A stretch of 62,803 nucleotides of DNA, the filler included, from Craspedostauros australis (Eukaryota): NCBI GenBank assembly GCA_030167865.1. It is 3 parts of 3 records of this genome, joined end to end, with 100 filler letters (N's around TTAATTAATTAA, not from the genome) between each part and the next. Parts side by side here need not be neighbours in the genome. Positions count along the whole stretch, not along the records: positions 52,694 to 62,803 come from JALAGF010003771.1; 2 more parts are not named here. One strand, 5' to 3'. Below are positions 2,414 to 62,803 of the stretch, piece by piece. Position numbers and translations under genes: made by a program. Each line of letters opens with the position of its first letter. Positions within the stretch are counted from its first letter, which is position 1. A model generated the notes under the pieces. The model saw nothing but the letters and a program-made list of their open reading frames with translations, had not been told where the DNA came from and did not search any database.

Positions 2414-3589
2414 GTCCGCAACCGCGGTGATGGTGGAGTAGAACTTGGTGTGGTATCGTGAATACGATTACATTATTCTATTATATTGTATTCTATATTA
2501 TTGTACTTAATATTATACTTGAGGCTCCCTGCATGCAATCTCTGTGTTAGGCATTGAAGTATGCGCAGATACTGTTGGAAAGGATAAGAAGAAAGGGAGA
2601 GATGGATTGGATGAAAGTGCGAATGATGCAGAAGACCGGTGCTCCACTCTGCTGTGAGGATCATGATCAGCTGGAGATCTTGCTTCGGAGGGGAAGCATG
2701 TCACCGTCTGTCATGCACACCGCAAGCTGAACCCGGACTCGTGACAGTCGCGATCATTTGCTGCATTCGTTGGATCAGAAATCCCCACGATGGATAAATG
2801 TTTCTGTTCCAGAACCTCTTTTTAACCGCACTTGTGGCTTTCGCATAAATGTAAAGCTCCGAAAACAGATTTAGCCTCCATTCGGATAAATATGAACTGC
2901 CTTGTGTTCCTAAGAGCTCGTCTGAGTGCCGCGACGGGGATCAAACTTTCGCCTCTACCCACAACACGCGGCGACGCAACGAGAACAAGGAAACACCAAA
3001 AGACGACAACGCCAAACCAAACAATGGTGCACAACAGCAACGACACGAAAGAAACGACAAACAGCCACCGACGCATCAGCTCGCCCAGTCACACACAGAG
3101 CGAAACAGATGCGTCCCTGGCCCGTACGTGCACAAGTGGCAGCCTGGACTTCGCGGCACGCATGTCAGTGAGGCAGCAGATACGCGGAAAACGTAGAAAT
3201 AGGAACATTTACATCACCCGAAGCCTCAGCGCTCCTCTTCACGAGTCTGCAGTCAAAGGTCGCATCACTCCGACCAGCACGACGACACCGACATTCCCAC
3301 CAACATCGTTCGCATACCAGGACCAGCAGCAGTGGCAGCAGAACGATCAATCATCTGAAGACTCCAGGTTGTCACTTGGTGGATGCAACAGCAAGAAACG
3401 CCACAGTTCCAGTCCCAAGCACAATCCATTTCCTGCACGCTGCGGTGGTCTCGACGCTGATCGACATCTCCACCAGTTGGCGTCAATCCGGTCGCTACCA
3501 AACACCGCGGTCAACACCGGCGATACCCCATACTCGCACCCCATACTCTGACTCTTACGGCCTACTCGAACTTGTACTCGCATCAACCG

Positions 3590-5404
3590 ATGCAGTCCAA
3601 TCCCATCCAATCCACCATGAGGCCCAACACGCCAACGACCGAGGTCTCGGCATCGTCATGGAACTCAAAGACGCTGCCAACGCCGCTGTCCGCCACGTCG
3701 CTCGATGATGAAGGGTCGTCGTCGTCGTCCTACTCCACTGGCATGGCGGCCACCGTCGTCACCGCCGCCACAGCAAGCGTGTCCCACCGACCTGCGAAGA
3801 GGCAAAACACGTCCACGATCGTGTCCATGCGCGGCAGCCACGATGCCACCTACGCCTTCATCGAGGACCACCCTCACTTCCGATCCAACGATGGCGCTCC
3901 TGACGGCGCATGCAGCGACGGATGCTTCGTCTCCGAGACACCATCACCACCGATCAGGTATCGCAAGCGAACTCCCAAAGCGACGGAAGCTCATGCGTCG
4001 GCGGTCCCTTCATCGTCGCCACCATCGTCATCTTCCACCGTGTCACTGGCATCAAACGACGATGCGCCCAAGCGACATTGGGAAGGCGAGCACATGCTGG
4101 CCAAGGAGATGGAGTCGCTCTCCCTCGTCGAACGCGAGAGCGTCTACGAGGACATTCACGGGGTCAAGCAGCATCCCACAGAAACGCCGGAGTTCCAGCA
4201 GAGAATGATCAAAGAGCTGAAGGAGGAGATCCAGAACGTCCGCAAGAAGGAGGCCTACAGCAAGGCCCTGTTCCTGTCGCCCAAGATGGTTCAGAGCGAC
4301 ATCCTCCATCTTGGCGTTCTGCGAGGCGCGCAATGGAACGCGCATGTGGCCGCCAAGCTCCTCGTCCAAGTCTTCGAGCTCAAGCTCAGGCTCTTCGGAC
4401 AAGACCACATGGTGCTTCCGATTACGTGGGATGACTTGACGCCGGCCGCCCAGCGGTCCTTGAACGAAGGCGCGATTGTGCGCAGCACGAGCGGCGTCGA
4501 CAGCACAGGGCCGCGGGCGGTGACGGAAGACTCGGTGGGGCGCAAGATCGAGGTCATGAACCTGGCCAGCTTTCATTTCGAGTCGGCCCTCTCCCTCCTG
4601 CAGGCTATTTGGTACATGAACGAGGTGGATCCATCGCACGCGCAGATCTCATCCAAGAAGGGTCTCGTCACCATCTTGAACACCGTCGGCGCCTCCACGT
4701 CGCAGCTGTATCAGCTGGTCGATTCGCACAAGAAGCTCAAGAAATGGAACTACAGCAACAAGCCGCTGCACATGGCCAGCTACCACATCTGCTTCGCCAA
4801 CCCGGCCTTGCGACCGGTCCTCAACGGGCTCCTCATGGCGATGCCCAAGAACACCAGACTGCGCACCAAGTTCCACTTTGGCTCATCCATGGAGTGCATG
4901 TACTCCATGGTCCCATACGGCATCCCTGCCAGCTCCCTCATTCCGTTCGATCACGGCGACGCATCCGACGACGAATCCTGCGACAGCGAATCCAGCGCGA
5001 GCAATACCAGAAACGCTTGGTTCCGAAAACAAGTCCAGCTTCTGCGCAGCAAGGAGTCCGTCCTGGTCGACGTCATCAAGTCGCAGATGCCGCCCAACAC
5101 CATCCTCTTCCCGCTCAAGGACGACATCGTCCTGGGCCGCGGCAAGCCGTACCAATCCTTCCCCGGCAACCTCAAGTTCGTCGAGATCCTCGAAGACTAC
5201 AAGGATGTCTACCACCACTGCAAGTCGCGAACGGACAAGACGTCGCTGTCTTCCAAACTCCTCAAGGTCATCAAGGATCGCGGCATGCGATTTTTGCAAC
5301 GCCATGGGCAGAGCGATGGCATGTACTGGGAGGAAGTTACGGACGAAGTGGCGCGACAGAAGATCACGATGAGTTTGCGCAATCTGTATCGCAAGCCGCA
5401 GTAG
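3590..5404 (+). CDS. Diatom-type DUF6824 domain protein with CRAL-TRIO-like middle region
   Basis: LAKEMESLSLVERESVYEDIHG N-motif, RLRTKFHFGSSMECMYSMVPYGIP, and C-terminal DDIVLGRGKPYQSFPGNLKF...RFL...WEEVTDEVARQKITMSLR. Start (3590 or 3617) uncertain. Confidence 0.8.
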   Translation: MQSNPIQSTMRPNTPTTEVSASSWNSKTLPTPLSATSLDDEGSSSSSYSTGMAATVVTAATASVSHRPAKRQNTSTIVSMRGSHDATYAFIEDHPHFRSNDGAPDGACSDGCFVSETPSPPIRYRKRTPKATEAHASAVPSSSPPSSSSTVSLASNDDAPKRHWEGEHMLAKEMESLSLVERESVYEDIHGVKQHPTETPEFQQRMIKELKEEIQNVRKKEAYSKALFLSPKMVQSDILHLGVLRGAQWNAHVAAKLLVQVFELKLRLFGQDHMVLPITWDDLTPAAQRSLNEGAIVRSTSGVDSTGPRAVTEDSVGRKIEVMNLASFHFESALSLLQAIWYMNEVDPSHAQISSKKGLVTILNTVGASTSQLYQLVDSHKKLKKWNYSNKPLHMASYHICFANPALRPVLNGLLMAMPKNTRLRTKFHFGSSMECMYSMVPYGIPASSLIPFDHGDASDDESCDSESSASNTRNAWFRKQVQLLRSKESVLVDVIKSQMPPNTILFPLKDDIVLGRGKPYQSFPGNLKFVEILEDYKDVYHHCKSRTDKTSLSSKLLKVIKDRGMRFLQRHGQSDGMYWEEVTDEVARQKITMSLRNLYRKPQ

Positions 5405-7261: not shown

Positions 7262-10200
7262 CTATGTACGAGTAGTCGGGTCTGAAGCACCGACCTCGAT
7301 GGAAGAGAAGTGCCAATTCTGGCACAGGTTGCTTGGCCAGATCTCGACGAATCCAAAGCTGTCGAAGAATGGGGGGTCTCCCGCGTAGACCTCCGAATTG
7401 GCATCATCGTCCACCCTGGCATAGATGGAGCCACCGACGCTCCCAGTATTTTGCCCAGGCTCTTCCAGCGAACCCCAACACATCGTGATCGTGCCGTTCC
7501 CAAAGATAGTGGCCTGCGCTGTTATTTTGTTGCGAGAGGATGATCCGAAGACCACACTTTCCCAGCCGATTGTCAATCGCGGGTTGTCGGGGTTCGTGGA
7601 GTTGACAAGGACGTACACGTCTCCGAAAAGGGATCTTCTGGTGTTCACGATGGCCCCGAACGACCCGATGCAGCCCGTCCTTGAGCTGCAGACTTCGATG
7701 GACCCGCGGCTGGAGATGATGAAATCATGGAAGGGCGCATGCGACTGATTCAGCCAGTAAACTGGGAAGTCCAAGGAGACTGAATCCACGCAGGTGCCAG
7801 AGCAAGCGGACAACGAACTCAGCTGGTAGGCTCCTGGCTCGTCCCTCAACGGCCTATTGCGGAATTCGTACATGTCGGACAGTTCCAAGTCGATGATGGT
7901 TTCCGATTGATTGTTGTGGCTGCCATCATTGGTTGAGCCAGAACTTGGAGAGCCGGTGCCGCTCAGTTGACTTGGGGTCACCGTTGGGGCGTTGTCAAAA
8001 ATATTGTGCGGTGCGCGGAATTGAAAGTGTTGGCACTGATTGGTCGGCCAGGTCTCCATGGACCCGACGGATGTGAACATTTGTCCAAGTGGATGATACG
8101 AAATTCCGGTGACGTAGTTCGTAATCTTGGATGTCACACTCGTTGTCGATGACATAACAGAGCCTTCGCCCCAACACATCAAGATAGCGCCTGTGGTCGT
8201 GATGGTGAGCTGAGCATTTTTGTATTGTTGCAACGCTGAGTTCGGGCCATCGCTCTCCCAGGATATGGTGATGGAGGCGTTCCGTGGATTGCTGACTCTG
8301 TGCAAGAGATAGACTTCCTCCGGAGCCCGTGAATCGGCCATGCCCAAGTTGAACAAGATGTCGCCGTAGCAGCGGTCGTTCGGCACGCAAATCTGGACGA
8401 ACCCGTCCTCCGATACGATGATCTGCTGCACCTTCGTGGCTGATTGGTTCAGCCAATGAAGGTCGAACTGGAGTTGGACCGTTTCGGAGCAGCCGTCGCA
8501 GGTGGCCGGCCATTGCACTTTCGTGGCGTCGGGATGATTCTTGATGGATTCCATCTGATGCATGTACATCGCGGATTGGATGGTCTCGATTGGATCATTG
8601 ACGGTCGGCGGAGTGGTCGCTCCCAGATCGTCAGTCATGGCGGTTGTTGGAGCGCTTGATGTATTGCCGCCCGCCACCGGGGCAACGCTGGGGCTGCCGA
8701 TATCATGCGGGCTTATTGTGGGCTGGTTCATGGTAGGTTGGCTTGTGGTGATGGTGCTGCTTCTCAGCTCAGAGCTCGAAAGTCGTTGACATGAATCTGA
8801 CGGGAATTGTCCATTTTTGGTCATGCCTTCGCTGTCGAATGAAAAACCCTTGGCTGGGAGCCTGGATTGGTCGACCGTGTCGGAAAGCCCTGCTTGGAAG
8901 CTGTAACCTAAGATCTGACCGCTTCCATAGCAAAGGTCGACGTCACCGTTGGCGTGAAGGTACGTCTGAGCATTGACGAAGGCATCCGTGCTGCCAGCCA
9001 GCCGCAAGTTTTGCCAAGAAACTATGGCATAGTCGGGATAGAGCCGTGCCCAGATGTTGCCACCAAGAGATATATCCAGGTTGGTTGACACAACATCAAT
9101 GACGCCACCATTGGTGAGGAGGATCGCGCCGTCTGTGAGGACATCGACAGTCGATTTCGCGTCGCTTCCCTTCCACATGAAGTTGAAATTTAGTGGCAGT
9201 CGTTCACTGCAACCCAGAGAGCAGCTGGACACAGCGGACAGCCACTGGACACCGGCCCCGCTTTCCGTGATGGCTTTGAATGTTGTAGCCAGAGGGTGTG
9301 GATTGTCGGGGGTTTCTGTCGGAGCTGCGGAAGGCAAGAGAGTCGATGGAGCACGTGTGTCTTCACCACTTGCGTCATCAATAGTAACGTTGGTGATGTC
9401 GCCCTTGCTGTACTGCATGTTGTTGGTGAACACTATGCATTCGTCAGTGGGCCAAGCGCCGTTACGTGTCCTTCCTCCAGTTGTGAAAATGGTGTCAGGC
9501 GTGGGATGGACGATGGTATGTTCGCGGTAATCTTGCATGCTCACCTCGACCGTTTCAAACGGTTGGATTCTGGCCGTACCGTAGCATATCTGAACGTCGC
9601 CTGACTCGAACAAGGTGGCCTGGAATTGGATGGATGTCTCAGGTTCGCCCCGAAGCACCACGTCCTCCCATGATACGATGGTGTGGCTCATGTCAAAAGG
9701 ATTTTGCAATCGGTCATCTGGCAATCTGCGATTGTTGCCATCGCTGTTCTTGGAGGTTGCTGAGACGCTGCTGGAATCTCCATCGTTGTCGGCATTTGTC
9801 GCATTGTTGTGCTTGATCCAGATGTCACCGCCGAGACTAGTGTCCAGATCGACGACTGCAGCGCGGATGATTCCGCACGGGTCTTGGTCGTAGCCTTCGC
9901 ATGTCGGCAGGATAATTTCTCCGTTGCTGGTCACCAGGATCTGATCCACGACTGTGCCGCGTAACATGAAGGGCGATGCCAGCATCACTTGCTGGTTGCA
10001 TTCGTCGCAGTCACTGACCTCGATCAACCTCGAGGCGCCGGGGATTGATGCGATACTTCGGTAGGTAGTCCTACCACTCAACGTGGGAGTTGCAGTGGGA
10101 AGATCTGTGACAGCACTCGGTGGCGTCATTTCCGTTGGGGGGCCCGTGCTGCTCCTGTTGAATTGCCCATCAGCGGTAGGCGAGCTGGTAGCCGCAGACG

Positions 10201-10717
10201 AGTTGTCATTGTTGTTGTCGTTGCTGCTGCTACTGCCGCCGCTGCTGCTCTTTCTTTTGTCGCTGACGAGGAACCCAACGACGACTGCCTGTACCAGGAT
10301 GATCAGAAGGAAGATGCCGCCGGCCGTGTACCAAATACACTTTCGCCTCTTCCTCTGCGCCAGATGTCCTTCCTCAACGACAGCGAGCTTCGCTTCATCC
10401 GTGCCTCCATTCACGCCATCGTCGTACGTATCGGCGACAGAACCAACGTTGGGGTCGGCGTAGGCGACTCGTGCGTCCAAGGGCACGTACTCTCCATCCG
10501 TCTGTCGGCGCTCCAAGGGACTGGCACCTGATCGTGACGTTGGATTCGTCGGTCCCACACCACCGCCAACCCCTCCAGGTTGCACCAAGGTGGCGACGGC
10601 GTCGGTGAGGATCGGCACGCTGCCAGCAGTGCCATTGGCAGTGTCATCAGTAATATCATCGGTGAAGAAGCTGTCGGCGTCTGCGGCGCTCAACGCTGGG
10701 TCGGATGGTTGCTCCAT
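7262..10717 (-). CDS. Type II single-pass membrane protein with four Cys-patterned NIDO-like extracellular repeats
   Basis: 1151-aa uninterrupted ORF. Basic KRRK is followed by one TM (CIWYTAGGIFLLIILVQAVVVGFLV). Four ~190-aa modules are separated by Pro/Thr/Ser linkers. Confidence 0.8.
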   Translation of the reverse strand: MEQPSDPALSAADADSFFTDDITDDTANGTAGSVPILTDAVATLVQPGGVGGGVGPTNPTSRSGASPLERRQTDGEYVPLDARVAYADPNVGSVADTYDDGVNGGTDEAKLAVVEEGHLAQRKRRKCIWYTAGGIFLLIILVQAVVVGFLVSDKRKSSSGGSSSSNDNNNDNSSAATSSPTADGQFNRSSTGPPTEMTPPSAVTDLPTATPTLSGRTTYRSIASIPGASRLIEVSDCDECNQQVMLASPFMLRGTVVDQILVTSNGEIILPTCEGYDQDPCGIIRAAVVDLDTSLGGDIWIKHNNATNADNDGDSSSVSATSKNSDGNNRRLPDDRLQNPFDMSHTIVSWEDVVLRGEPETSIQFQATLFESGDVQICYGTARIQPFETVEVSMQDYREHTIVHPTPDTIFTTGGRTRNGAWPTDECIVFTNNMQYSKGDITNVTIDDASGEDTRAPSTLLPSAAPTETPDNPHPLATTFKAITESGAGVQWLSAVSSCSLGCSERLPLNFNFMWKGSDAKSTVDVLTDGAILLTNGGVIDVVSTNLDISLGGNIWARLYPDYAIVSWQNLRLAGSTDAFVNAQTYLHANGDVDLCYGSGQILGYSFQAGLSDTVDQSRLPAKGFSFDSEGMTKNGQFPSDSCQRLSSSELRSSTITTSQPTMNQPTISPHDIGSPSVAPVAGGNTSSAPTTAMTDDLGATTPPTVNDPIETIQSAMYMHQMESIKNHPDATKVQWPATCDGCSETVQLQFDLHWLNQSATKVQQIIVSEDGFVQICVPNDRCYGDILFNLGMADSRAPEEVYLLHRVSNPRNASITISWESDGPNSALQQYKNAQLTITTTGAILMCWGEGSVMSSTTSVTSKITNYVTGISYHPLGQMFTSVGSMETWPTNQCQHFQFRAPHNIFDNAPTVTPSQLSGTGSPSSGSTNDGSHNNQSETIIDLELSDMYEFRNRPLRDEPGAYQLSSLSACSGTCVDSVSLDFPVYWLNQSHAPFHDFIISSRGSIEVCSSRTGCIGSFGAIVNTRRSLFGDVYVLVNSTNPDNPRLTIGWESVVFGSSSRNKITAQATIFGNGTITMCWGSLEEPGQNTGSVGGSIYARVDDDANSEVYAGDPPFFDSFGFVEIWPSNLCQNWHFSSIEVGASDPTTRT

Positions 10718-11116
10718 GGTCGTTTCTGTACCGCAGGTGGTACATGCGAGTATCTTCGAAAAACACTCCTGAGTTGATTGTTATGTCCGTCTCTGCTTCA
10801 TTCAATGGCACAAACGGAATGCCGGTGTTGGGGTTGGATGTCGAGGCGCTGCGTCCATCCCATCCTCCCCTGCTTCCTCACGAACTGTTGGTGGGAAGCA
10901 TTGGGATCCCATGCTCCCTTCATCTCGATTCTCGGTTGCCTTCATTGTGTGCACACCACGCTTGCGTTTCGTTTCGCGCTGTGGGCTTCACCGGTCAGTC
11001 ATTTTCATTCCCGTCGTCGCGAAGGTCGCGGTTATTTGTGCGGATGATTGAGTCACGTTTCGAAGACCATTCGAGTCACACTTGGGCATTGTGCACATGA
11101 AGCATTGTTTCTTCTG

Positions 11117-47650: not shown

Positions 47651-48058
47651 CCGGAATCGTGCATTTACCAACACATTAGAGCGAAGCGGGCTTCCCCGGC
47701 TGGTTGACCTAAACGGCTCTCTCCCCCTTTCTTGTGATTGTTCTCGCCCTCTCGCACCAATACCTTGCCTTTGTGACCGTGGCAACCGCTCCTTTCGGCG
47801 CTTCTCTTCCTGGCACGGGAACAAAGCAACCAAGCAGGCGGAGACCTCATCGCTAGAGTTCGCGGCTCATATTCTCAGAGAGTTGGGCACAGCAGAGCAG
47901 AGTTGGTCACAGCCATCATCGGCATATTCAAAACCGGCACAAGTTCTGGAGTAGGAGATCAATCATCACCCCAGGACTCTGATTCCAGCAATCACAGAAT
48001 CAATCACAGAATCAATCACAGCAGCAGCAACAACAACAGTCGCGGACTGCGGAGATCC

Positions 48059-51000
48059 ATGAATAGGGTCATGTCATGGAGAGGAGGGAAGGGCGCCAAC
48101 CTCGGAGGTGCCCAACCAGGTCCGAATGCAAACTCCAATGCAAACTCCAATACTAACTCGCCCGCATCGGCTTCCGTGGCCACATCGGACAAGTCCCGCC
48201 TCCCATCGATCAACGACGGACCTTCGCAGCCCGATGAGCCCAATTCGACCAGCCAGACAGCTAGTGCAGCAGAAGGCACCGACGTATCCTCCGCCAATGA
48301 TGACCAATCCGTGCGCTCGGCATCCAGCCATCACGAGACCAAATCCGTCGGTACGGCCGCATCGCACTTCACGCTCACGTCGCTGTCAGGCATCACGGAG
48401 GAGCTCATCAATGCGGCATTCTCGTCGGGTCAAGACCCGAAGATCCTGCAATACCAGCAGCAGATTCAGGAGAGCCGGCGCACCATTCAGACCATGCGCA
48501 AGACCTCGCGTCAGGTGGCGCGCACGCGCCGGCAGAACCTGGGGAAGCTGCAGGCCACGCTCAATTCCAAGTCCAGGGAGCTCTGGTACAAGGAGACCAA
48601 GATGAAGCGCTTCCTCTCCCTCCAGGTCTACAAGAAGGAGTGCCTGGGCTGCGCGCGGGAGGGTGACGGCAACGCGCAGATCAACCTGGAATCCAAGCTC
48701 TGTCGGGCGGAGCACCTCGCGTGGATCACAGATCGTCAGAAGGACATTCACAATCGCATCTACCACGAGATGATAGAGTACCTGTCCACCACCGTGCCAG
48801 AAATCAAGACGGAGCAGGCCCTGGCCAACGAGATCGGCGTCGCGCAGCTCGACAGGTTCGAACAGAGGAAGCAGCAGCACTTCAAGGAATACGAGCAGTA
48901 CCTCCACATCCAGGAGACCATGCTGGAGAAGCTGCGTGCCATCGTGCATGCGGACGAATCGTCATCCTCCAATCAAAATGTTTCCGATGACGGTGCCATG
49001 CAGCCCGCAGATCAAAAACCCTCGGCTGTGTCCGATGACGCTGCGGGTCAACCATCCGGACAGCATGACCAAGTGCAACCCAGCCGTTCCTTGGACTCGG
49101 GAGAAGCCTCCGAAATATCTGTTGAGCTCAAGGATGCAGACGACGGCAAACAGGCTGACGCAGCAGCAGCAGCAACCACCGCCAACAACGATGGCGAGGA
49201 CGGTCTCAATGGCAATAGTGACGATGGGGCGTCTACCACCATTCCCGATTCCATCGAAACGCATGGTGCGGCAGAAGAACCGCAGAACCAGCAATCCACC
49301 ACCCTCTCCAGCTTCTTTGGCCGTCTGCGTGGTCGGAAATCGGAGATCGGCGACGGCAGCAGCGCGGCGGAACGACGAAAACGCCACGAATCCGAGGACG
49401 ACATGAGCATGGACGAGATGCGTCGTGCGGATGAGGCCCTGTTCGGCGCATTCGAAGTCGATGACAATGACGGCGGTGGTGGCAAAGAGCAGGATGAATC
49501 CGAGACAGGTTCTCATGATTCCAGCCACAATGTCATGGAACATTCCGAATCGCACCATGACGACAGCGAGACCAACGGGGTGGATTCCGATATGCTGAGC
49601 CCGACCCCCAGCGAATCGAGGAACACGTCGCATCGAAGTTTGGACTCCAACGATCTACCCGATGTTCCCGAGGAGGACGTTCTGCCACCGCCCGAATCAG
49701 CAGCATCGGATACCAAGGGAGGCGATGCCGATTTCGAGAGCGCATCCGAAGTGGATGAAGAAGATCTCGGTGCGGGCATTGCAACAGCCAACGGCACCAA
49801 GGAAATTCCAGTACCGGAAGCGGAAACCACAGAACAAGAGGAACAGCAGGAATCGGATGATAGCAACAACGCAGATAGCAATCTACAAAAGGAAGAAGAG
49901 CAAGAAGACGATGTCGAAGAATCCGCGACAGAAGTCGAACAGCAAAAATTGGAAACGAACGGACACATTGAGAAGAAAGACGATCACGAGGTTTCCGAAA
50001 CTCACGATGAGCTAGAAGCGTCAGAAAGGGATTCAGAGCTTGATAGCAGCAGCAACAGTGAGAAGAAAGAGGAGCCTGCAAAGGTTGCAGAGCAAGTCAA
50101 TCCTGATTCTGCATCTGATCACAAGCCAGAGGAGGAACCGGAACCAGAACCAGAACCAAGTGCAGCTGACAGCATGCCCGACAAAGACAAACAGGCGGTG
50201 AACATCGACGATGGTGACGGTGAGGACAATGAAGACTCTGAAAATGACGCCGCCGCTTCCGAGCAAACAGATGCAGCTCCAACCCAACAAGAGGAGGATG
50301 CCAAAACTGAAAATCAGAGCCAAAGGGATAGTTCTGGAAGGAGTGGCACACGAGCAAGGGCAGCGACTTCACGAGCGCGATCGGAGACCACCCCAACCAG
50401 TCCGTCAGCCCGCAGAGCGAGACGAGCAACGTCGAGAGCAACAAATGGTACAGCGTCATCATCCGCACCTGCAGCTACGACCACATCATCAAGACGAGCT
50501 ACGTCAGCAAGGAGCACACAGGATGTGTTGGACCGTGCACGAACATCGCGGCGACGACCGGCCGAAGGCAAAGACAAGGATGCCAACGGCGCAGTGTCTC
50601 CTCGTCAAACGCGACCGCTGAAATCCCGTGCCGCAGGATCTGCTCGTGCCCGCGCCGGAACAGGAACAGGTACGACTACCGCGAGAAAGGGTCTTTCGGA
50701 AGAACGTCGTGCACAACTGCGCAAGGAGAAGGCAGCGGCCGCAGCAGCTTCGTCATCGCCATCCTCGCCGACTCCCTCTGCTGATGCTGGAAGTGGCGCT
50801 GCTGCTGAGTCTTCTGAAAAGGAAGCGTCACCACCGCCACCAACAGCAGCAGCGGAAGCGTCACCAAAGGTCACACCGTCAGCATCGCAATCGGCATCGG
50901 CCGCAACAAGCACGAAAGGGTCAGCGAGATCGGCGACGAAAGTCAACGACAGAAGCACCACGGCATCATCAAGACGTGCCGGGGGCGGGTTGTCAGAAGA

Positions 51001-51259
51001 ACGGCGTGCCCAATTGCGTGCCAACCGAGCTGCCGCAGGTTCTAGTGCTGGAGCCGGTGCCAGTGGTGGAACGCGAACGCGCACGGAACGAGCAACGACG
51101 AGCAAACTGTCGGAGGAGCGAAGGGCGCAACTGCGCAGCGAACGACGCAACGCGTCTGGTAGAACACGAGCGACCGCAGGCAGCAGTGGCTCGAATGGGG
51201 GTGGGAAAGCTGCAAACGGCAAGGCAGCGACAGCTCAGAGCGATGCAGAAAAGCAGTAG
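48059..51259 (+). CDS. Large hypothetical protein: coiled coil, acidic spacer, basic R/S/A/T tail
   Basis: >1000-aa open frame with a predicted coiled coil around 48430-48950 and three LSEERRAQLR repeats. Confidence 0.75.
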   Translation: MNRVMSWRGGKGANLGGAQPGPNANSNANSNTNSPASASVATSDKSRLPSINDGPSQPDEPNSTSQTASAAEGTDVSSANDDQSVRSASSHHETKSVGTAASHFTLTSLSGITEELINAAFSSGQDPKILQYQQQIQESRRTIQTMRKTSRQVARTRRQNLGKLQATLNSKSRELWYKETKMKRFLSLQVYKKECLGCAREGDGNAQINLESKLCRAEHLAWITDRQKDIHNRIYHEMIEYLSTTVPEIKTEQALANEIGVAQLDRFEQRKQQHFKEYEQYLHIQETMLEKLRAIVHADESSSSNQNVSDDGAMQPADQKPSAVSDDAAGQPSGQHDQVQPSRSLDSGEASEISVELKDADDGKQADAAAAATTANNDGEDGLNGNSDDGASTTIPDSIETHGAAEEPQNQQSTTLSSFFGRLRGRKSEIGDGSSAAERRKRHESEDDMSMDEMRRADEALFGAFEVDDNDGGGGKEQDESETGSHDSSHNVMEHSESHHDDSETNGVDSDMLSPTPSESRNTSHRSLDSNDLPDVPEEDVLPPPESAASDTKGGDADFESASEVDEEDLGAGIATANGTKEIPVPEAETTEQEEQQESDDSNNADSNLQKEEEQEDDVEESATEVEQQKLETNGHIEKKDDHEVSETHDELEASERDSELDSSSNSEKKEEPAKVAEQVNPDSASDHKPEEEPEPEPEPSAADSMPDKDKQAVNIDDGDGEDNEDSENDAAASEQTDAAPTQQEEDAKTENQSQRDSSGRSGTRARAATSRARSETTPTSPSARRARRATSRATNGTASSSAPAATTTSSRRATSARSTQDVLDRARTSRRRPAEGKDKDANGAVSPRQTRPLKSRAAGSARARAGTGTGTTTARKGLSEERRAQLRKEKAAAAAASSSPSSPTPSADAGSGAAAESSEKEASPPPPTAAAEASPKVTPSASQSASAATSTKGSARSATKVNDRSTTASSRRAGGGLSEERRAQLRANRAAAGSSAGAGASGGTRTRTERATTSKLSEERRAQLRSERRNASGRTRATAGSSGSNGGGKAANGKAATAQSDAEKQ

Positions 51260-52693: not shown

Positions 52694-53635
52694 GAGAACT
52701 TGCTTGGCGTACACGCCGATTCCAGCCGTGAAGATGTGAGTTTCGTACCGCCGTGATACAGCCTGGAGAAAGTCCCTCACGAATGGGCGTTCCTGTACGA
52801 TAGCCGAGCCATGACCAGATATATGGATGGGGAATGAATTGATGCGAGCAGACTCGAGCTGTTGCTGTTGCTGTCGGTCCTGTCGAGTCTGCCAGGCCAC
52901 GCCATCGTCAGCAAGCTGATCGAATTGCGTGTGGACCAGACATTCATCCAAATCCAGGACGACGACGAGATCTGAATCGTACTCGCGTGGTGTAGTTATC
53001 TGCACGGATTCTTGTGCCGAGTCATCTGCGCCCTGCGCTCTTTCTTTCGCCGTCTGCGATCGTGACGATGTCGTTGTCGATCCCGATGCTGATCGTGGAT
53101 TCGTGTGAATGCAAACTGCCGTGTCCGCCTCAGGAGCGTTGGCATCGTGTGGATTCTCGCTTGGAAATGTCCTTCTCTGCAAGATGCCACCACCTGTCGC
53201 AATCGAATGGCTATGGCGGTGCGACTGTGAACAAGTACGGGGAGTTCCGACACCTTTTGCCCACATGGATGGCGTTCTGCGCACTACCGGAGTCGACCTA
53301 TCTGCGGAGCTGCAGCGAATCGGGCCATGTCGACAGTGAAGAAGACGTTGCTGTTGTTGATGATACTGGACTTGCGAATGTCGATATCGATGTCGATGCA
53401 GGGGATTGCGGCATATCTTCTCCTGGCGAGGGAGGTGATGGCAACATGAGTAAGATCCACGCAGCAGAGATCCAGAGGCAGATTCGAAGGTTCCCATCGC
53501 ACGACACGGTTTCTGGAATGCCTCGTTGGATTCATGCGCAGACTTGCACAACCACGCGGAAAGGCAAGTCGCATACGATCTTGGTGCGGACTTCGTCATG
53601 GACTGCCATACGGCGGCTGGAGACGCCATCGCCAT
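52694..53635 (-). CDS. FCP1/NIF (CTD small phosphatase/Tim50-like) HAD-family protein, 3'-truncated
   Basis: LVVVLDLDECLVHT, ERPFVRDFL and HIFTAG..YAKQVL after a long basic N-terminal extension. Confidence 0.85.
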
Positions 53636-54062
53636 GCTGCTTCTTTGTGGTGGTGCCTTCTGCAGTTGCCCCAATTCGTCCGAATCGAGCTTTACTCTTT
53701 GCTTGGATGTACACAACAGTATTGGTATAGTAGGTCGTATTGTGCATACGAGTACAAGCGGGCACCAATGGAAGAGTTGGCAACATCGACATCGCGACGC
53801 AACACCCGATCGTTCTTCCCTCTTGCGCTCTTGTGGCGTTGTCCGTGCTCCCACCACTTCGTGCCATCTTTCCTCTGTCTCAAAAGATCGCAGAGCTTTG
53901 TGATTTCAATCGTGCTACATGCATAACGTCTATTTAACGCACATGGGTGAGGATTCGGGCTTAGTCGACGCGAATCGGTGGAGGATGCCTTGTGAATCTG
54001 CCAGCTTCGAGATAGCTGTGTAATGCAGTTCAAGAGAGGTGTACTGGTTGAAGAGTTGTTAC

Positions 54063-54526
54063 TGTAACGATGAGTAGAAGAGTGCTTTGTAGCTAATCCT
54101 TGTCTGTTTATTATGAGTTAGCTTGTATTGTTGGTAGGGTGAAGAAATGATGCCACACAGCTTGGTAGGACCCTGCACTGATGTACTTGGTCCAGTGCTT
54201 GAGGGTAGGCAATTATTGCAGTTCCTTGCTCTCCTCACACGTAGACACACTGCAATGTAGGTCATGACACTCAATAGTGACGGTCATGAAGCAATGGCTG
54301 TGGCTTGAGTTCGCTCTCGGATTCCGTTGCTTGAGTTGAAGCAAGTTGGATATACGTGTCAGGACTACGGCAGTGGTGCAGTGGTCATTGGCATGGAGGG
54401 AATCAAGGTATGTTGTAGTAAGAGGATCTGAGGAGCATATAGTTCCCAAGGTGAGGTGTGAGTCAGGTCGGTCATGTTTGAGTCATGATGGATTCGTGAA
54501 TGGAGGAGAGAAAGAAAGGGGAAACA
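54063..54526 (-). mobile_element. Possible solo/unrelated LTR
   Basis: Minus strand begins TG(TTTCC) and ends (GTTA)CA, contains TATA-like and AATAAA motifs, and is CpG-poor. No target-site duplication seen. Confidence 0.3.
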
Positions 54527-54618
54527 GATTTGGTGGTCGATCAAGTCGGAAGATTTCGCGCCAAAACAAGAATTTCTCCCATCGGAGGTGGATACCGTGT
54601 CCGGTAATAGTCTGTCCC

Positions 54619-56215
54619 TTATTGAATCTCAACTGATAGAGAGACCCTCACCGCATCCTTCACTAAGTTGAATCGGCCCAGGATTGCTCGACGGCAAATC
54701 CTTTCTGCCTTGTTGGTCGTTGGGACGTCTCTTGATACCCAGGGGACGCGAATCTTGAACACATTGTATTCGGTGCATTCCGTGCACCACGAGTACATCG
54801 CTCCACGTGCGAGACAGATTGGACACCATGCATCCGTTCTGCTGCACTCACACACGCGATCGATCTCGTCGCGTAGGAAGTAGTCAATGGCGCTGCTCAT
54901 GCGAGCAGCTGTTGTTCCGGCTCCTTGCACAGCTGGTGCGTGGTTGACGTCAATGCCCGGCATCGCGACCTTGGTAACCCTGATGCTCTTGTCTGATTCG
55001 AGCAGGTCATTGTTCATGAGGTCACAGATGCTTCCGATGCTTTCGTTGGTTGGCAAATTGGCTCTCACGGTCGAAGGGAATGTTTCCATGAATCCGAAGA
55101 GATCCTCTTCAAGACCATTCTCAAGCTCGATCTCGTCGAGATTGCTGATCTCAACGAAATCCCCCATCCGCGATGACGAGTGCCATATCGTCCATCGCGT
55201 CGTCGTCCATCACCATGTTGGCGCTTTCCGCTTTCTTCATCGCTGCCTTCAGCTTGAAGCATTGGAGAATCTTGTGCCCTGCCTTTCCACAGCAGTTGCA
55301 CTTGCTGTCGAATCCACCCTTTTTGGATTCGCCTTTAGCATCGCCATGATTGCCTTTCTTCTTGGCTCCACCTCCTCTTTTGTTGTTGCCTCCCTTGGCT
55401 GGCGCACAACAGTCCACCTTCTTGTGCCCATAGGCACTGCAGTTGCGACAGTTCCCCTTGAACTGTCCATCTCCAAACAGAGCGAGCTCCTCATTGCTGC
55501 TTTTGCCTGCACGCTTTTAACCATGTTTGAGATGGTGGCGGTCGTAGGTTAGGCTCACGGCTTCGCGGATGTTGCCCACTGTCATCTCCTTTTCCTTTCC
55601 CAGGAACTTGAGTACGAGCATGTTAAACTGCTCCACGTCGACGACCACCTCCAGGGTGATCAGTTGGTTGCAAAGGACCTCCATGTCCGTTGGGAAGAGA
55701 TCTGGATTCTCTCCCTTCTTCAATCGCATCCCGTTGAGCTTGCCCAGCAACTTTGCCTTCATAGGCGCAGTGCGCTGCTCATAGATGCGCTCAAGAGCCA
55801 CCCAAGCTGCGCGAGGGTCTCTTCCCCCATTCAGCATGCTCCTGCATCCCCACACCACCTCGAAGGCCACTTTGCCTTCCTTTGAATCATGGCTGATAGC
55901 CAAGGTCAGTTCTTTGTAGGCATACTTCGCCATCGCTTCCTTGTACTCTTCCAGGTCCGCAGCACTTGCCTTAGAACTCGACTTGGCGCCCGGTTTGGGC
56001 TTGACACCGGCCTCGGGTTTGATGGGAACCAAGGTCTCGGTAACCTCAGAAGGAGCTTTCACTTCCACCTCAGAGTAGGCCATCAAGAACATGTCTCTGT
56101 AACCCTTGTGGTTAGCACGAGAGAGGAACTTGGCCAGCCAGAACTTCCAGTTCTCCTTCTTGCCGTCGAAGTAGACCACTGGGAGGCGGTCATGTTTGGC
56201 GTTGATGGTACTCAT
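54619..56215 (-). pseudogene. Ty1/Copia (CoDi-like) gag, disrupted, no pol
   Basis: FDGKKENWKFWLAKF...AWVALERIYE...GENPD gag motifs. In-frame TAA at 55517-55519, then two CX2CX4HX4C knuckles (CRNCSAYGHKKVDC, CNCCGKAGHKILQC). Frameshift at ~55160. Confidence 0.85.
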
Positions 56216-56291
56216 GTTGATGGTGATGGTGGATGATAGGCTTGATGGTGCGGGGTGAAACATAGGATTTCAATCTAAATGTTCCGAAACA

Positions 56292-56713
56292 TGTTGGAAA
56301 TCCGGGGTGGTGATGATAGTAGAAAGCTAATCGTTTGTTAGAATCTACTTCTCTGAACTGTGAGCTCTTCATTGCTCTCAACTTCCAAAGTTTGATCTCT
56401 TCCTTAGATCTCCATGGGTCCCTCTGTTGGTCTAGCATGCATCCATCTCGCACTCATCACAAATTCATCATGGACATGCATGCACCAGTGAGTGCCCCAT
56501 GTCCGTGTACTCATCATGTTGTCTTTCCACCAATAGTTTCATTGGCTTAGACATTGCTGAGTTGCAGGCATCACTTGGCTTGGTCCATTTGATCGGATCG
56601 CAGTATCCCATCCTTCACATGAACAGCTTGGATGGTTGCTCTCCCTCAGCTTCTTAGCATCGCACATCTCCAATCATCTCCGATACATCTCCGATACCTC
56701 TCCGGTCACTTCA
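56292..56713 (-). mobile_element. Putative 5' LTR of the Copia element
   Basis: Minus strand reads TGAAG...TTTCCAACA and ends ~75 bp before the gag ATG. Internal ATCTCCGAT-like tandem repeats. Confidence 0.55.
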
Positions 56714-57832
56714 CCGGCTCTTCGCAGGTTTGTCCTTGATGATCCGTTCACAGGCCATCTCACTCTTCATGACATCGGCCTTCCTCCAGTACTCTTTTCT
56801 CATTGGTTGCGACATGGGGGCCGTATTCGTGTGTATCGTGATGTTGGTCACGATTCCAACATCCCTGCCCCCTGCAACATACACGTGTGATTCGCATTCC
56901 TGCATTGAGGTCACGAACGTTACAGTCCGGTTCGCATTCGGCACGTGGCGTTCTCCACCGCAAGACACGTGTAGCTCACATTTTTCTGTCACAAAGATCC
57001 AAATGTGGTAGTTGCGGTAATGCAGTATTTTATGACATTCTATTCCTTTCTCTTGGGAGGCGCGGCAACCCGGTGTTTCAGAACACCCGATTCCTGACAC
57101 GGAGCCGTCACGTTGTGTTGCTGCATGGTCCATGTGTTTTATCGTGAGTGCATCAACTGCGATCTGGAGCTCGTACCAGCTCGCATGCGTCAGAATTCAT
57201 TCTTTGCGAAGCACCCAAACGCAGATGGCGTCATCCAATCGTCGCTTCAACAACCCAAAGGGTGCAAAATGCTGTCAATCCGATGTCACCATCTCTCAAG
57301 TGCGCTCAGGGTAGTTCCAGTACAAATTTGAGTTCCGTTGACAACGTGCGACACGAGATTGGTCCATAAATGGGTTGTTCTGAGCGACATCAAGACGACA
57401 ACGTTGTTCTGTTCTTCCACAAAATTGGTGTTGATCGGATCTTCCCAAGGGAACTGTTGGGGTGACTTCTCCACACAACCATCCATGGAGTTGAGGAACC
57501 TCGGCACACAAGGTTCCAGCGAACGGGCACAGAGACAACACCACACCATGACACGTGACGCTCGTGCAAGCGACTCATCGTCGTCTGCATGCTCATGGCG
57601 CAGCAACCCACAGGTGTACGCTTGGCTGCTCTGCTATTCTACGACAGGTGCTTCCCGCTCATCCACCTTCTCGTCCTCTCCATGGATACCACGCCAATAC
57701 GAGTGCTGCACCACCGATCATGAAGACACCCCTGGCGAAGGAATGGCAGCAGTTCCTGTTTCTGCTCGCTCTTTCCTTCAAAGGACTCCAAATCATCTCA
57801 TAAATCCTTCATCTCGTTGATGACGAAAAGCC

Positions 57833-60800
57833 ATGCATTCTCACTTCTACCAACGAATCCTTGCTGCTGTGGTGCTTGTGGCGCTTGCCGCTACGGCAGC
57901 GGCATCCCCGATGCCAAAGTTGACGGTGAGTACGAGCAAGATGGCAACTGTCACTGTTGTCTTGACGCGTGGGGGCTCCTTCTTTGCTGGCATTCTCGCC
58001 TTGCCGCATCCGCATCCAGAGACATACTCGTACGTGCATCCAATTCAATGACCTCATCCTCAACTCAACCATGATTCTGCACCTTGCATTATACAATATT
58101 ATATTCTACATCACAACGCGTTATGTCACATCACGCCACGTCCTTCATCACAATACCAACAACTGGATCGAACTCAATTCAGACGCATGACGCTGCCTCG
58201 GGCGAACACAGTATCCTGCAGGAGCCATGCCTCGTCTCGGCACGGATCATTAGCGCTGCCGACGGAACGGATGCAACTGACTTATCTTGCATGCTCCAAG
58301 GCTCCGATGAGGAAGAACATGGGCCTGTGCATTTGACCATCGAAGGGCTGACGCTGGAATGGGCCAAGAACAACCGTGCATGGCCATTTTCCTCTTCCAA
58401 GTCCACGTTGTTTCTGGAGAATGTCATCATCAATGTCACCGACTTCTCCTTGAAGCTGCCGGACTTGACGACCGTCGATGACATGACGATCGAGCATCAT
58501 CAACGAAGCGAACAAAGCGATGGGCATGGACATGGTCGTTCTCTGACCACTCCTGATGTCCGTGGTTCTGGCGACAAGAAGTTCCTCTTCATCCAGGTCG
58601 TCTTCCAAACCAACTACACAGTTCCCAAGTCCCTCATCAAAGACGAGATCTTCGGCGCTCAGCCCAACTTCACCGACCAGTTCGCGGCCATGTCTTTTGA
58701 CAAGCTGAGGCTCTCCACCATGCCCACGAATGGGGCAGATGATGGGATTTTGACATATGAGTTTCCCCCTGATGTTGATCCCACCACTCTCGAGGCAGAA
58801 ACAGTTGATAATCTCGTCTCGCAATATCTGAAGCAGCAGGTCAAGATCTATGACGACTTTGATTTCTTCTTGATCATTGTCCCGTTCGGGTTGAATGACC
58901 GTGGAACTGATTGGACCTGTAAGTGCCAACAAGGACCACACAACTCGTATCTTCCTTATCAACATTTCGCACTGGTATCGTGACGAGCTCTACCCGTGCT
59001 TATACTCCTATCTAACCCATCCCACTCCAGCGTGCAATACCATCTTTCTTCCGTGCGAATCAAACTCTCTCGATTATCAACGCGCGCGCAACGATGTAAC
59101 CAACACACCACTGATCCACAGCGTACTCTTATTTCCACCAAAAGATCAGCGTGTACAACGGTATCGAAGAGTATCCAGGCACGCACTGGGCGGCCAACCT
59201 ATACTTCATCCTCAACGGACTCGGTCGCAACTTTGGGCTTGACACTTCCAATCGGAACGGGGAAGAGTTCGGAGATCGCAGGTAAGCGCAGTCAATGCGC
59301 CAGCAGAGACAGAGAGGTTGGAGGCGATCTGTGACATTCTGTATCAATCTTTGTGGACGGATGGACGATCGGACACAAGAACGAACACAATCAAACTCCG
59401 GAGAGAGCACATTGGACACGTCTGCCATGTTCTGGTCGTCATCACATGAGAGGAAACCTGTTTATTGTTCGAAGCCCATCTAACCCGTCTTCGTGTATCC
59501 TCTTCCTCGTTGTTGACGTCCTCCGGTCAATGGATTCCGACCCCAACATCGACTATTATTCCGCAGCGGCGCGATGGGCGGAGCAGTTTTTGGTCCATTT
59601 TTTAATGAAACTCTGACCAATAAGGTGGGGTACAACGGTAAGTGCTACGGCGTCATCGCCTTGTGGAGAGCCAGGGGTCAGATGATTCCGTTGCAGGAGG
59701 AGTCGTGTCACCTCATCACATACGATGCGATGCGACACTCTACGTACGCTGTCTCAACAATCACTACCTTCTCCATCGTTTCATTCTTTGCTTCCGCGCC
59801 AAATCATTTCACGCCCTCATGCTCATGCTGCAAACCTACCCCTTCAATATCATTACTCATGTGCCTGCCCCTCCACCACACACAGGTGCCAAGAGCTGGG
59901 TGATGGGGTGGTACTCCGATCAGACCACATTGCTCACCGGAGGTCAAGACATCGACTTTGAGGGAAGGCTCTGCGGAGTGGTCGATTATGACCCCGCTGA
60001 CACCAGCTTTGACGTCATCATCCGAATTGACGATCCCGAGAGTGAATTGAACTACTACATCGCCTTCAACAGAGCCATAGGCTTCAACGCCGATTCTCCG
60101 CTGGGCAGGGATCAAGTCCTCGTGACAAGGGCACAAGACTACAGCACTACCGAGATTCGACCCTCTGATCTGGAGGCCATCCTGAACACGACACAACCAT
60201 CGTACAGAATTGATGCCCAGTCGTCTTTGCTGGATGGGATCGTCATCTCGGTATCCAACATCGATGATGACTCGGCCACACCCATGTGTGCGACGGTGAG
60301 CGTGAAAGTAGTTTCCAGTCGATCACCAACTGCGGCACCATCCGTTTCTATGGCACCATCATTGTCATCACCCCCATCGAATGTTCCGACTGTGACCCCC
60401 TCGTCTGTCCCAACCGGAATTTGCGGCACGTGGGAGGTGACAGCGCCCACCGGACCTCGCTCAGATGAGCGCATTGAGTCATTCAGATTCGATGTTCACA
60501 TACTGGACCTCACCCGATTCACCGCCATCAAGGTTGCCGTGGCTGCTGGATTCACCAACATGCCATACACGATCTTCTTCCGTCCAAGCACCTGGGATGC
60601 CGATGGCAACTGGACTCAGATTGCATCAGGAAACAACGGAGAAACGGACTCGTCTGGCTTCACCCCTTCTCTCATATTTGATCAGCCCGTGGTGGTGTCT
60701 GCGGATGATGACATTGTATCCTTCCGCATTGACATGGCCGACAGATTGGGGACTTTGGGCTCGAACTTTCCGCGTGTGATCCCAGAGACCTTTGTCGAGT

Positions 60801-62416
60801 GCCCAGACTGCCCATTCGAGGTATTCACCGGACAAGGTAGCCTAGAAGTAGGAAACAACCCACCCAATTTCCGCGATGAGTCCCTCGTCTTTTTCGGCAT
60901 CCTCGAATTCTGTCGGGGCCCGAGCACCGAGATGCCAACTGGATCTGCTTCCCCCACTACGACAACATTGCCAACAACCCAGCCATCCGCAGGCCCCACA
61001 CAGGCACCAACAGACACCTGCCGCGACGCAAAAACAGCAGGTCTCCCAAGAGGCTTCTTTGACGACACGGTCGCTTCAGTGCGACACGACATTCAGATTC
61101 TGGATAGTGTCGACATCACAGGCATGAGGCTTGTCCTACCATCGATGGGGAACCAAAATTTCACAATCTTCTACCGCCCAAGTACTTGGGATGCATCCGG
61201 GAATTGGGCAGAACTTGCATCGGGAACGATCGAGGCCAGAGGTGCTGGTGAATTCACAGATGTGATCGCATTCGACCAACCTTTGGCTGTGTCCGAAAGC
61301 GACGATGTGATCTCCATCCGCATCGATACACGAACGAGCACAGGGGATGACTTCTCGGACAACATCATTCCCATCCCTCCAGACTGGCTTGATTGCAACA
61401 ATTGCCCATTCACTATCTTTACGGGAATTGCGAGCGGTGTTGTCGGTGATTATCCTCCTCCTCTCTACGATGGCTCCTTTGAGTACTTCATGGGTTCGCT
61501 GGAATTCTGCAACGGCAACTCGAAGATGCCTCCAACTGGATCTGCTTCCCCCACTATGACAACATCGCCAACAATCCAGCCATCCGCAGGCCCCACACAG
61601 GCACCGACAGACACCTGCCGCGACGCAAACACAGCAGGTCTCCCAAGAGGCTTCTTTGACGACACGGTCGCTTCAGTGCGACACGACATTCAGATTCATG
61701 GTAGTGTCGACATCACAGGCATGAGGCTTGTCCTACCATCGACGGGAAACCAAACTTTCACAATCTTCTACCGCCCAAGTACTTGGGATGCATCCGGGAA
61801 TTGGGCAGAACTTGCATCGGGAACGATCGAGGCCAGAGGTGGTGGTGAATTCACAGACGTGATTCCATTCGATCAACCTTTGGCTGTATCCGAAAGCGAC
61901 GATGTGATCTCCATCCGCATCGATACACGAACGAGCACAGGGGATGAATATTCGGACAACATCATTCCCATCCCTCCAGACTGGCTTGATTGCGACAATT
62001 GCCCATTCACTATCTTTACGGGAATTGCGAGCGGTGTTGTCGGTGATAATCCTCCTCCTCTCTACGGTGGCGTCTTTGAGTACTTCATGGGTTCACTGGA
62101 ATTCTGCAACGGCAACTCGAAGATGCCGCCATCTGCGCTGCCATCTGCGCTGTCGTCCGCGCCGTCATCCGCTCCGTCATCCATGCTGTCGTCCACACCG
62201 TCATCCACGCCGCCATCTGCGCTACCATCCACGCTGTCGTCGGCGCCGTCGGCCGCGCCGTCATCCACGCTGTCGTCCTTCCCTTCCTCCCAACCATCTC
62301 ACATACGCAGCACGAAGGGGGCGAAATCCTACAAATCGGACAAGTCATCAAAGGAGAGCAAGACCAAGTCTCCCAAGTCATCCAAATCAAGCAAGTCGCC
62401 GAAGAGCTCTGAATGA
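57833..62416 (+). CDS. Secreted gametolysin (peptidase M11)-like pseudo-peptidase with tandem modules and Lys/Ser tail; exons 57833-57925, 58183-58918, 59122-59281, 59567-59637, 59886-62416
   Basis: Signal peptide; four GT-AG introns with matching phases. M11 landmarks: QFAAMSFDKL, YSY...ISVYN, EFGDRSGAMG, YNGAKSWVMGWY, YYIAFNRAIGFN. Confidence 0.82.
60935..62128 (+). repeat. 597-bp (199-aa) near-identical tandem duplication within the M11-like gene
   Basis: Units 60935-61531 and 61532-62128. A diverged third copy lies at ~60420-60915. Confidence 0.95.
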
Positions 62417-62803
62417 GACCACTCAATGAGTACGGATACTCGTGCATCCAGCTCCTGTAGCAACAATGAAGGCAGATGTTGGTCTATCACCAAACCGTGG
62501 TACAATCCTTGACCACGGGATGAGGGATGCCATCGAAGCCCGAGGATTGAAGAATGAACAATCTACTCCATCATATGATACATGTTATAGCGTCTTCACA
62601 GAAGCACATGTAATATAATACATTGCAACCTGCCAAGCTCCTCCGTCCACACAACTCGTAGTATGCAGGCCGCGCGAAGAATACTGTTTGTACGTATGGT
62701 AGATGTGTTTGCTGCCATTTCGATCGGATTCATGTTTACAACTGTTCCATGGTGATACGCTCTGGGTAGGAGCACTTCGTGAAATCCATTCTCATGCCGC
62801 CGT

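Follow-up and report, generated by a model that had tools for sequence, protein, structure and literature searches.

A probable catalytically dead gametolysin (M11) homologue with wall-protein-like architecture in the diatom Craspedostauros australis

What becomes of a member of a lytic protease family once its catalytic residues are gone? This question is raised by a gene of Craspedostauros australis (NCBI GenBank assembly GCA_030167865.1) that lies on the plus strand at positions 57833 to 62416 of the DNA analysed here. The stretch as a whole, termed the window, comprises 62,803 nucleotides, filler included, in which three parts of three records of the genome are joined end to end with 100 filler letters between each part and the next; positions 52,694 to 62,803, and with them the gene, come from JALAGF010003771.1. 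An initial annotation, made from the sequence alone, described the product as a gametolysin (M11) homologue that has lost its active site and been repurposed at the frustule or extracellular matrix. The present analysis finds it very probable that the five exons form an intact nuclear gene whose product is a catalytically dead M11 homologue. The fuller statement, which adds an architecture read as wall-binding, is favoured with less assurance.

The active-site helix is encoded by the third exon, where window positions 59211-59249 translate to LNGLGRNFGLDTS. In an alignment with seven longer diatom relatives, described below, their motif HE(F/L/I)GHN..(L/H).HS lies over NGLGRNFGLDTS. Translation, multiple alignment and profile alignment place the altered motif as follows:

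59214..59246, + strand: degenerate zinc-binding/catalytic motif, NGLGRNFGLDT in place of HExGHNxxLxH

The first His of the family is replaced by N308, the Glu by G309, the second His by R312 and the third His by T318. None of the four family residues varies among the six relatives that make up the profile termed A3, and the relative P0015 has them too. Within the 12-residue motif, the L, G, N, G, L and S match the family, whereas the H, E, H and H do not. The claim that all three His and the catalytic Glu are replaced is therefore borne out, with the small correction that the 13-residue peptide originally given begins one residue before the motif. The scaffold around the site is retained, as had also been claimed: the Met-turn reads SGAMG under the relatives' SGMMG/SGLMG, with M333 on their invariant Met; the motifs GD.SG, NGAKSW.MGWY and YY.AFNRAIGFN are kept; and the reading frame has no internal stop. 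No HExxH occurs in the six frames of 56500-62803, compared with 13 elsewhere in the window, and a search with the catalytic cores of the relatives (tblastn) gave no second match in the introns. Because of these two results, the objection that an alternative exon supplies HExxH is removed as far as sequence can remove it. Since the zinc ligands and the general base are gone, metzincin chemistry predicts a pseudopeptidase that would neither bind the catalytic zinc nor activate water, and proteolysis is expected to be absent.

The residue numbers used here refer to the product of five exons joined on the plus strand:

57833..57925, + strand: exon 1, start codon and signal-peptide-like hydrophobic N-terminus (residues 1-31), with donor GTGAGT
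58183..58918, + strand: exon 2, conserved pro-region and N-terminal half of the M11-like domain (residues 32-276)
59122..59281, + strand: exon 3, active-site-helix region of the M11-like domain (residues 277-330)
59567..59637, + strand: exon 4, 23 residues, GDxSGxMG Met-turn segment (M333 at 59574-59576), then a 5-residue insertion
59886..62416, + strand: exon 5, rest of the M11-like domain, linkers, modules, stalk, tail and TGA
59886..60307, + strand: first part of exon 5, C-terminal half of the M11-like domain (residues 354-494), with the motifs NGAKSW.MGWY and YY.AFNRAIGFN

This model, including the start at 57833, is that of the initial annotation, and it holds. The spliced frame of 3591 nt runs for 1196 codons to a TGA without any earlier stop, and its start is the first ATG following an in-frame stop. 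The four introns (257, 203, 285 and 248 nt) are canonical GT..AG introns with the donors GTGAGT, GTAAGT, GTAAGC and GTAAGT and with CAG at all four acceptors. Three of the four exon junctions are supported, since the product continues without gaps along its homologues across DWT|SYSY, GDR|SGAMG and GYN|GAKSW; the exon 1/2 junction falls in unconserved sequence and is placed by splice signals and frame only. Exon 4, at 23 residues, bridges the gap in the profile that separates exon 3 from exon 5. Exon 3 lies within a stop-to-stop frame of 56 residues (59115-59285), and because this is below the usual 60-amino-acid threshold for open reading frames, the exon is invisible in the open reading frame track, as previously stated. 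An alternative acceptor for exon 3 at 59149/59150, judged by eye, was rejected, as it shifts the frame to one without family similarity. In intron 4 (59638-59885), the frame of exon 4 remains open throughout (stop-to-stop 59517-59903) and is out of phase with exon 5, and retention of this intron would yield a truncated product ending soon past the Met-turn.

Homology to the M11 family is carried by a chain of profile searches. An exhaustive search with exon 2 (phmmer) returned eight proteins at E <= 0.001. Six are related fragments of 219-332 residues that end about where exon 2 ends, two of them with sub-threshold PF05548 matches (E about 0.02); the others, P0004 and P0008, were dropped as large bacterial-type repeat proteins matched over short stretches. 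A profile of exon 2 and the six fragments (A2) retrieves seven longer diatom proteins with E-values from 5.8e-57 to 3.8e-14, three of which are named 'Gametolysin peptidase M11 [Fragilaria crotonensis]'. All seven pass the PF05548 gathering score of 21 bits, at 41-65 bits, and six of them constitute profile A3. Against the spliced product, A3 scores 153.8 bits (E 3.8e-49, Z=1), with profile positions 9-512 colinear with residues 9-542 in one stretch. On this evidence, the M11-like domain of the initial annotation is confirmed as a homologue of PF05548 proteins. The individual exons, aligned with A3 by hhalign, also match in colinear order:

Exon 2: columns 47-272, probability 95.3%, E 2.1e-8
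Exon 3: columns 279-322, which hold HEiGHNl.LaHS, probability 33%, E 4.5e-4
N-terminal part of exon 5: columns 344-480, probability 98.6%, E 1.4e-15

In the tblastn search with the cores of the relatives, 59121-59282 was matched by five of the six and a shorter stretch, 59211-59282, by the sixth. The top Atlas cluster for exon 2 is 'Gametolysin peptidase M11 domain-containing protein' (0.94, 193 shared features), whose members are mostly Bacillariophyta and carry PF05548 in 11% of cases; this match is a lead only. Sequence searches of the PDB gave nothing for exon 2 and one weak, irrelevant row for exon 5 (CbpA, E 0.43). An AlphaFold2 model of the relative P0013, built from a 6-row alignment, was poor (predicted local distance difference test, pLDDT, 44.6; predicted template modelling score, pTM, 0.32). 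The diatom M11 pro-region (window 58183-58560 and relatives P0001-P0014) has a conserved, unnamed signature of its own, PC.V ... C.LQG.D ... W ... SG.STLF. The PF05548 model does not cover this signature, and the PF05548 matches of the relatives begin only past the RxL motif.

That motif and the other features flanking the M11-like domain and the modules are located as follows:

58537..58545, + strand: RSL, candidate propeptide cleavage site (residues 150-152), the sole RxL outside the signal peptide
60308..60421, + strand: S/P/T-rich linker 1 (residues 495-532), with 11 S, 8 P and 4 T among 38 residues
60914-61018, + strand: PT linker 2, before module 2
61511-61615, + strand: PT linker 3, before module 3

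The signal-peptide-like N-terminus, the RSL-type pro-site and the PT/PS linkers listed in the initial annotation are all present, the first as a single hydrophobic stretch and the linkers by their composition. The signal peptide was judged by hydropathy alone: the protein has one strongly hydrophobic 19-residue window on the Kyte-Doolittle scale, at residues about 5-28. RSL aligns with RKL, RNL or RRL in five of the seven full-length relatives, the motif being deleted in P0010 and lacking in P0015, and with RRL, RSL or RKL in five of the six fragments. Because an RxL is aligned in most relatives, RSL is taken to be a family feature at the border of pro-region and catalytic domain, where the precursor would be cleaved. 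At the position of linker 1, the relatives carry PT repeats, which in P0009 correspond to PF04886.

Past the first linker, the protein has three modules, each bracketed by Cys:

60422..60913, + strand: module 1, C533 to C696, with the Cys pattern C...CxxC...C
61019..61510, + strand: module 2, C732 to C895, a direct repeat at 597-nt spacing
61616..62107, + strand: module 3, C931 to C1094, 93% identical to module 2

The repeat unit of 597 nt encodes 199 residues and each module has four Cys, in agreement with the three Cys-bracketed modules of ~199 amino acids described earlier. Modules 1 and 2 are 40% identical and share 65 invariant columns, which include all four Cys. The modules have no match in Pfam, and when genome contigs were scanned with the module alignment, the 45 pattern stretches matched included no relative. 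In the Atlas, unnamed bacterial clusters (0.93) and a Lectin_like (PF18560) cluster (0.90) were returned as leads only.

The C-terminus consists of the stalk and the basic tail that had been predicted:

62123..62299, + strand: S/P-rich stalk (residues 1100-1158), with 24 S and 13 P among 59 residues
62300..62416, + strand: basic lysine/serine (K/S) tail and TGA stop (residues 1159-1196), with 11 K and 14 S among 38 residues

The 59-residue stalk is encoded by a 12-nt/84-nt tandem repeat at 62125-62278. The 38-residue tail has a net charge of +9, compared with -83 summed from the pro-region to module 3. Nine overlapping KxxK motifs fall within the tail, compared with none in the remaining 1158 residues, and seven windows of the tail contain five Lys within at most 14 residues.

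Such features recall the proteins of diatom biosilica. According to the available part of one study, silaffin-like proteins are marked by an endoplasmic reticulum signal peptide, RXL, repeated KXXK, PT repeats and pentalysine clusters (PMC5501833). According to the same source, RXL is the canonical motif at which proteases cleave diatom wall proteins, and the pentalysine cluster, five Lys in 12-14 residues, is important in silica targeting; its KXXK screen demands S or G at X and motifs 1-6 residues apart (PMC5501833, in part). Set against these marks, the window protein has the signal-peptide-like N-terminus and the RSL, and its tail agrees with the pentalysine description and in part with the KXXK screen. 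As in silaffin-like/KXXK proteins and cingulins, so far as the source describes them, signal peptide, RXL, PT stretches, K/S segment and pentalysine clusters occur together. However, the K/S segment of the window protein is just 38 residues long, lies at the C-terminus and is attached to a large, acidic, globular multidomain protein. The likeness is one of motif marks, and no sequence homology is claimed.

Comparison with known M11 proteins separates what is inherited from what is new. Up to the first linker, the layout is that of diatom 'Gametolysin peptidase M11' proteins (for example P0009-P0011 of Fragilaria crotonensis and the MMETSP/EukProt transcripts P0012 and P0014): a signal peptide is followed by a conserved pro-region with Cys, by RxL, by an M11 domain of ~340 residues and by a linker rich in PT. 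These relatives keep HExGHNxxLxH and four invariant Cys, all of which are missing from the window protein. At 612-768 residues they are also shorter, and their C-termini consist of PT repeats, a small Cys-rich knot or an LTD domain (the last in P0012), whereas the window protein, at 1196 residues, adds the three modules, the S/P stalk and the K/S tail. The additional ~700 C-terminal residues differ in make-up from those of the diatom PF05548 relatives, and modules and tail occur in none of the seven longer relatives retrieved. In P0015, a protein of 1786 amino acids, the M11 domain shares one chain with a trypsin domain and five PA14 stretches.

Gametolysin of Chlamydomonas and the M11 family of Volvox and Chlamydomonas belong to the same Pfam family as the window protein, by transitive homology. 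Unlike the window protein, they are active zinc enzymes, as far as the partial source describes them; the comparison is by description rather than by direct alignment. Gametolysin is a secreted, propeptide-bearing zinc enzyme that breaks down walls built from Pro/Hyp-rich proteins, and zinc-binding sites are conserved in most Chlamydomonas isoforms (PMC8643629, in part). In mode of working, although not in family membership, the window protein resembles the pseudopeptidases of the ADAM group (ADAM2, 11, 18, 22, 23 and 32; MEROPS M12), in which the HExxHxxGxxH ligands are likewise substituted and the Met-turn is kept. These secreted or surface proteins retain prodomain and Met-turn and act through binding, or in some cases discard the pseudopeptidase domain (PMC11266112, in part). 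They differ in belonging to M12 rather than M11 and to another kingdom, and in having disintegrin, EGF and transmembrane segments as partner domains.

How might such a protein work? The proposed sequence of events begins with entry into the secretory pathway by means of the N-terminal signal peptide, followed by clipping at the family-conserved RSL. Outside the cell, the protein would have a binding or structural role in the cell wall and would not cut. The dead M11 domain may retain a groove-like surface for its former substrates, Pro/Hyp-rich wall proteins; binding of a lectin or carbohydrate-binding-module (CBM) type may be added by the three beta-sandwich modules, which are acidic and bracketed by Cys; the S/P stalk could serve as a glycosylated spacer; and the KxxK/pentalysine tail might direct the protein to biosilica or fix it there. 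A role in wall or biosilica, suggested by this architecture, is evenly poised between being right and wrong. The most specific version is speculative and rather unlikely: a lytic protease family would have been turned into a wall building block, an M11 'substrate trap' that holds Pro/Hyp-rich frustule proteins while its modules sit on polysaccharide and its tail in silica. Of the repurposed pseudo-enzyme put forward by the initial annotation, the M11 homology, the four substituted catalytic and zinc-binding residues, the intact scaffold and the intact frame all stand; the function as scaffold, adhesin or decoy at the frustule or extracellular matrix would follow from architecture only.

Several results weigh against this reading. 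With regard to family membership, a Pfam scan of four exon translations taken singly gave no family at E <= 1, so that assignment to M11/PF05548 is transitive only, by way of the relatives. Word-indexed protein searches gave no match for exon 2 among longer proteins or for exon 5 among proteins of near length. The M11-like domain is at most 28% identical to any relative, and its terminal branch reaches 5.66 changes per site where the median is 0.84, in a tree of eight rows with no real outgroup and open deep forks that informs on divergence and not on placement. Where the six closest relatives share four invariant Cys (in QCS, LCLP, WC and CFN), the window protein has M, I, A and G, and its active-site helix and Met-turn are bordered by insertions of 7 and 5 residues. 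Moreover, no ortholog sharing the dead site was found in protein and metagenome searches. A metagenome scan with the N-terminal part of exon 5 plus module 1 as query yielded two loci among 97 pattern matches, L001 and L002, both matching the M11 part only (residues 1-172 of the first part of exon 5, 33% identity), and L002 is of the active type, with an intact HEIAHNLGLQH. With regard to the modules, the 597-nt units of modules 2 and 3 differ at 33 of 597 nt, with an imprecise ratio of nonsynonymous to synonymous substitution rates (dN/dS) of 0.75 that gives no sign of strong purifying selection. The long branch, the lost Cys, the insertions at the active site and this dN/dS are all changes that relaxed constraint would also produce. 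With regard to the tail, only three of its nine KxxK motifs are of the strict KSSK type, and one gap between motifs spans 7 residues.

The fold of the modules belongs with these reservations. An AlphaFold2 model of module 2, from a 3-row alignment, is all-beta at low confidence (pLDDT 54.2, pTM 0.59), and Foldseek returned TM-scores of at most 0.46 for it (birnavirus VP2, PHR, CBM35, SUN). In a VIA-align comparison with 48,161 chains, the three best matches were PHR domains, with Z values of 9.9, 9.7 and 9.2 and 126-131 aligned residues at a root-mean-square deviation of 3.0-3.2. The lectin-like domain of Cwp84 ranked below them (Z 7.5), as did numerous CBM6/32/35-type domains (about Z 6), on a scale where, by the tool's own note, Z 7-8 is common even for unrelated models. 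From this model, the modules are probably beta-sandwiches of the galactose-binding-like or PHR type.

Some details of the family stand apart from this question. C383 and C488, in the C-terminal subdomain, are Cys unique to the window protein. Of the four invariant Cys of the closer relatives, P0015 lacks the two at the LCLP and WC positions, and because of this joint absence, the four family Cys may form two disulfide pairs. In L002 (positions 340-620), an environmental M11 gene of diatom type, HEIAHNLGLQH is split within the Glu codon by an intron of ~100 nt (cac g|gtatgt ... cag|aa), and a second intron lies past DDQSGM; the intron positions are unlike those of the window gene.

Three other explanations of the gene can be weighed against a dead M11 homologue that binds in the wall. 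The first, which is improbable, holds that the M11-like domain is a pro-piece for folding or transport that is cut off and discarded, leaving modules, stalk and K/S tail as the working product. Some ADAM pseudopeptidases discard theirs in this way (PMC11266112, in part); the long branch, the four lost Cys and the insertions at the active-site helix fit the weak constraint on such a piece; and modules and tail, found in none of the seven longer relatives, are the new part of the protein. However, the sole RxL outside the signal peptide precedes the M11-like domain rather than following it, and along ~340 residues the scaffold motifs of that domain can still be made out.

Still less probable is a decaying or unexpressed gene, in which a recently inactivated M11 paralogue drifts neutrally and its product has no function. 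The very long branch and the dN/dS of 0.75 between modules 2 and 3 speak for it, as does the failure to find an ortholog or an identical database protein in the searches run. Decay at an identity of 28% or less would not, however, be expected to leave a stop-free frame of 3591 nt in five exons with eight canonical splice signals. The pattern of loss is also selective, with structural motifs and Met-turn kept and the four catalytic residues gone, and modules 1 and 2 keep every Cys and their 65 invariant columns at 40% identity. That the protein is still a protease, by way of an HExxH-bearing alternatively spliced exon or unconventional metal ligands, is hardly credible given the lack of HExxH and of a second catalytic core at the locus and given that N, G, R and T serve as zinc ligands or general base in no metzincin, which is established knowledge (compare Table 2 of PMC11266112, in part). 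A catalytically dead M11 homologue, encoded by an intact gene, is thus the reading preferred here.

The surroundings of the gene are eukaryotic and diatom-like. Neighbouring genes encode DUF6824, HMG box, ABC-F, histone deacetylase, NIF phosphatase and Mpv17/PMP22 proteins. DUF6824 is typical of diatoms, and a 647-residue frame at 3461-5404 (+ strand) of the window ends in such a domain (E 4.5e-19), in keeping with a diatom source for the window. Comparison of the spliced product with the window by tblastn revealed no paralogue of the gene elsewhere in it. Two long stop-free frames, at 7262-10780 (- strand) and 47777-51259 (+ strand), span 1172 and 1160 residues and match no Pfam family at E <= 0.001.

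The function of M11 proteins in diatoms is unstudied. MEROPS flags 'non-peptidase homologues' in many families, and dead M11 members may already be catalogued there without having been studied. Literature searches brought up no account of an inactive M11 homologue from a diatom, and the main text of a biosilica-proteome preprint (10.1101/2021.09.18.460806) contains no occurrence of 'peptidase' or 'metallo'. Pseudopeptidases are well known in the families M12 and M14, and the available part of a 2024 review names no M11 case (PMC11266112). The M11 domain count is notably higher in the genome of Chaetoceros tenuissimus than in the other organisms compared (PMC8613185, in part).

Relative to the diatom PF05548 proteins retrieved here, the dead site, the lost Cys and the C-terminal architecture are new, and the protein is a sound candidate for frustule biology, although no surprise in principle. 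Should expression be lacking, the gene would be no more than a divergent paralogue. If the protein is a wall component, it would represent a lytic enzyme re-used as a structural protein and would offer a concrete candidate for tying organic wall proteins to silica. Should the substrate-trap reading prove true, this would be the first M11 pseudopeptidase given a function and would define an undescribed class of protein that links organic matrix to biosilica in diatoms.

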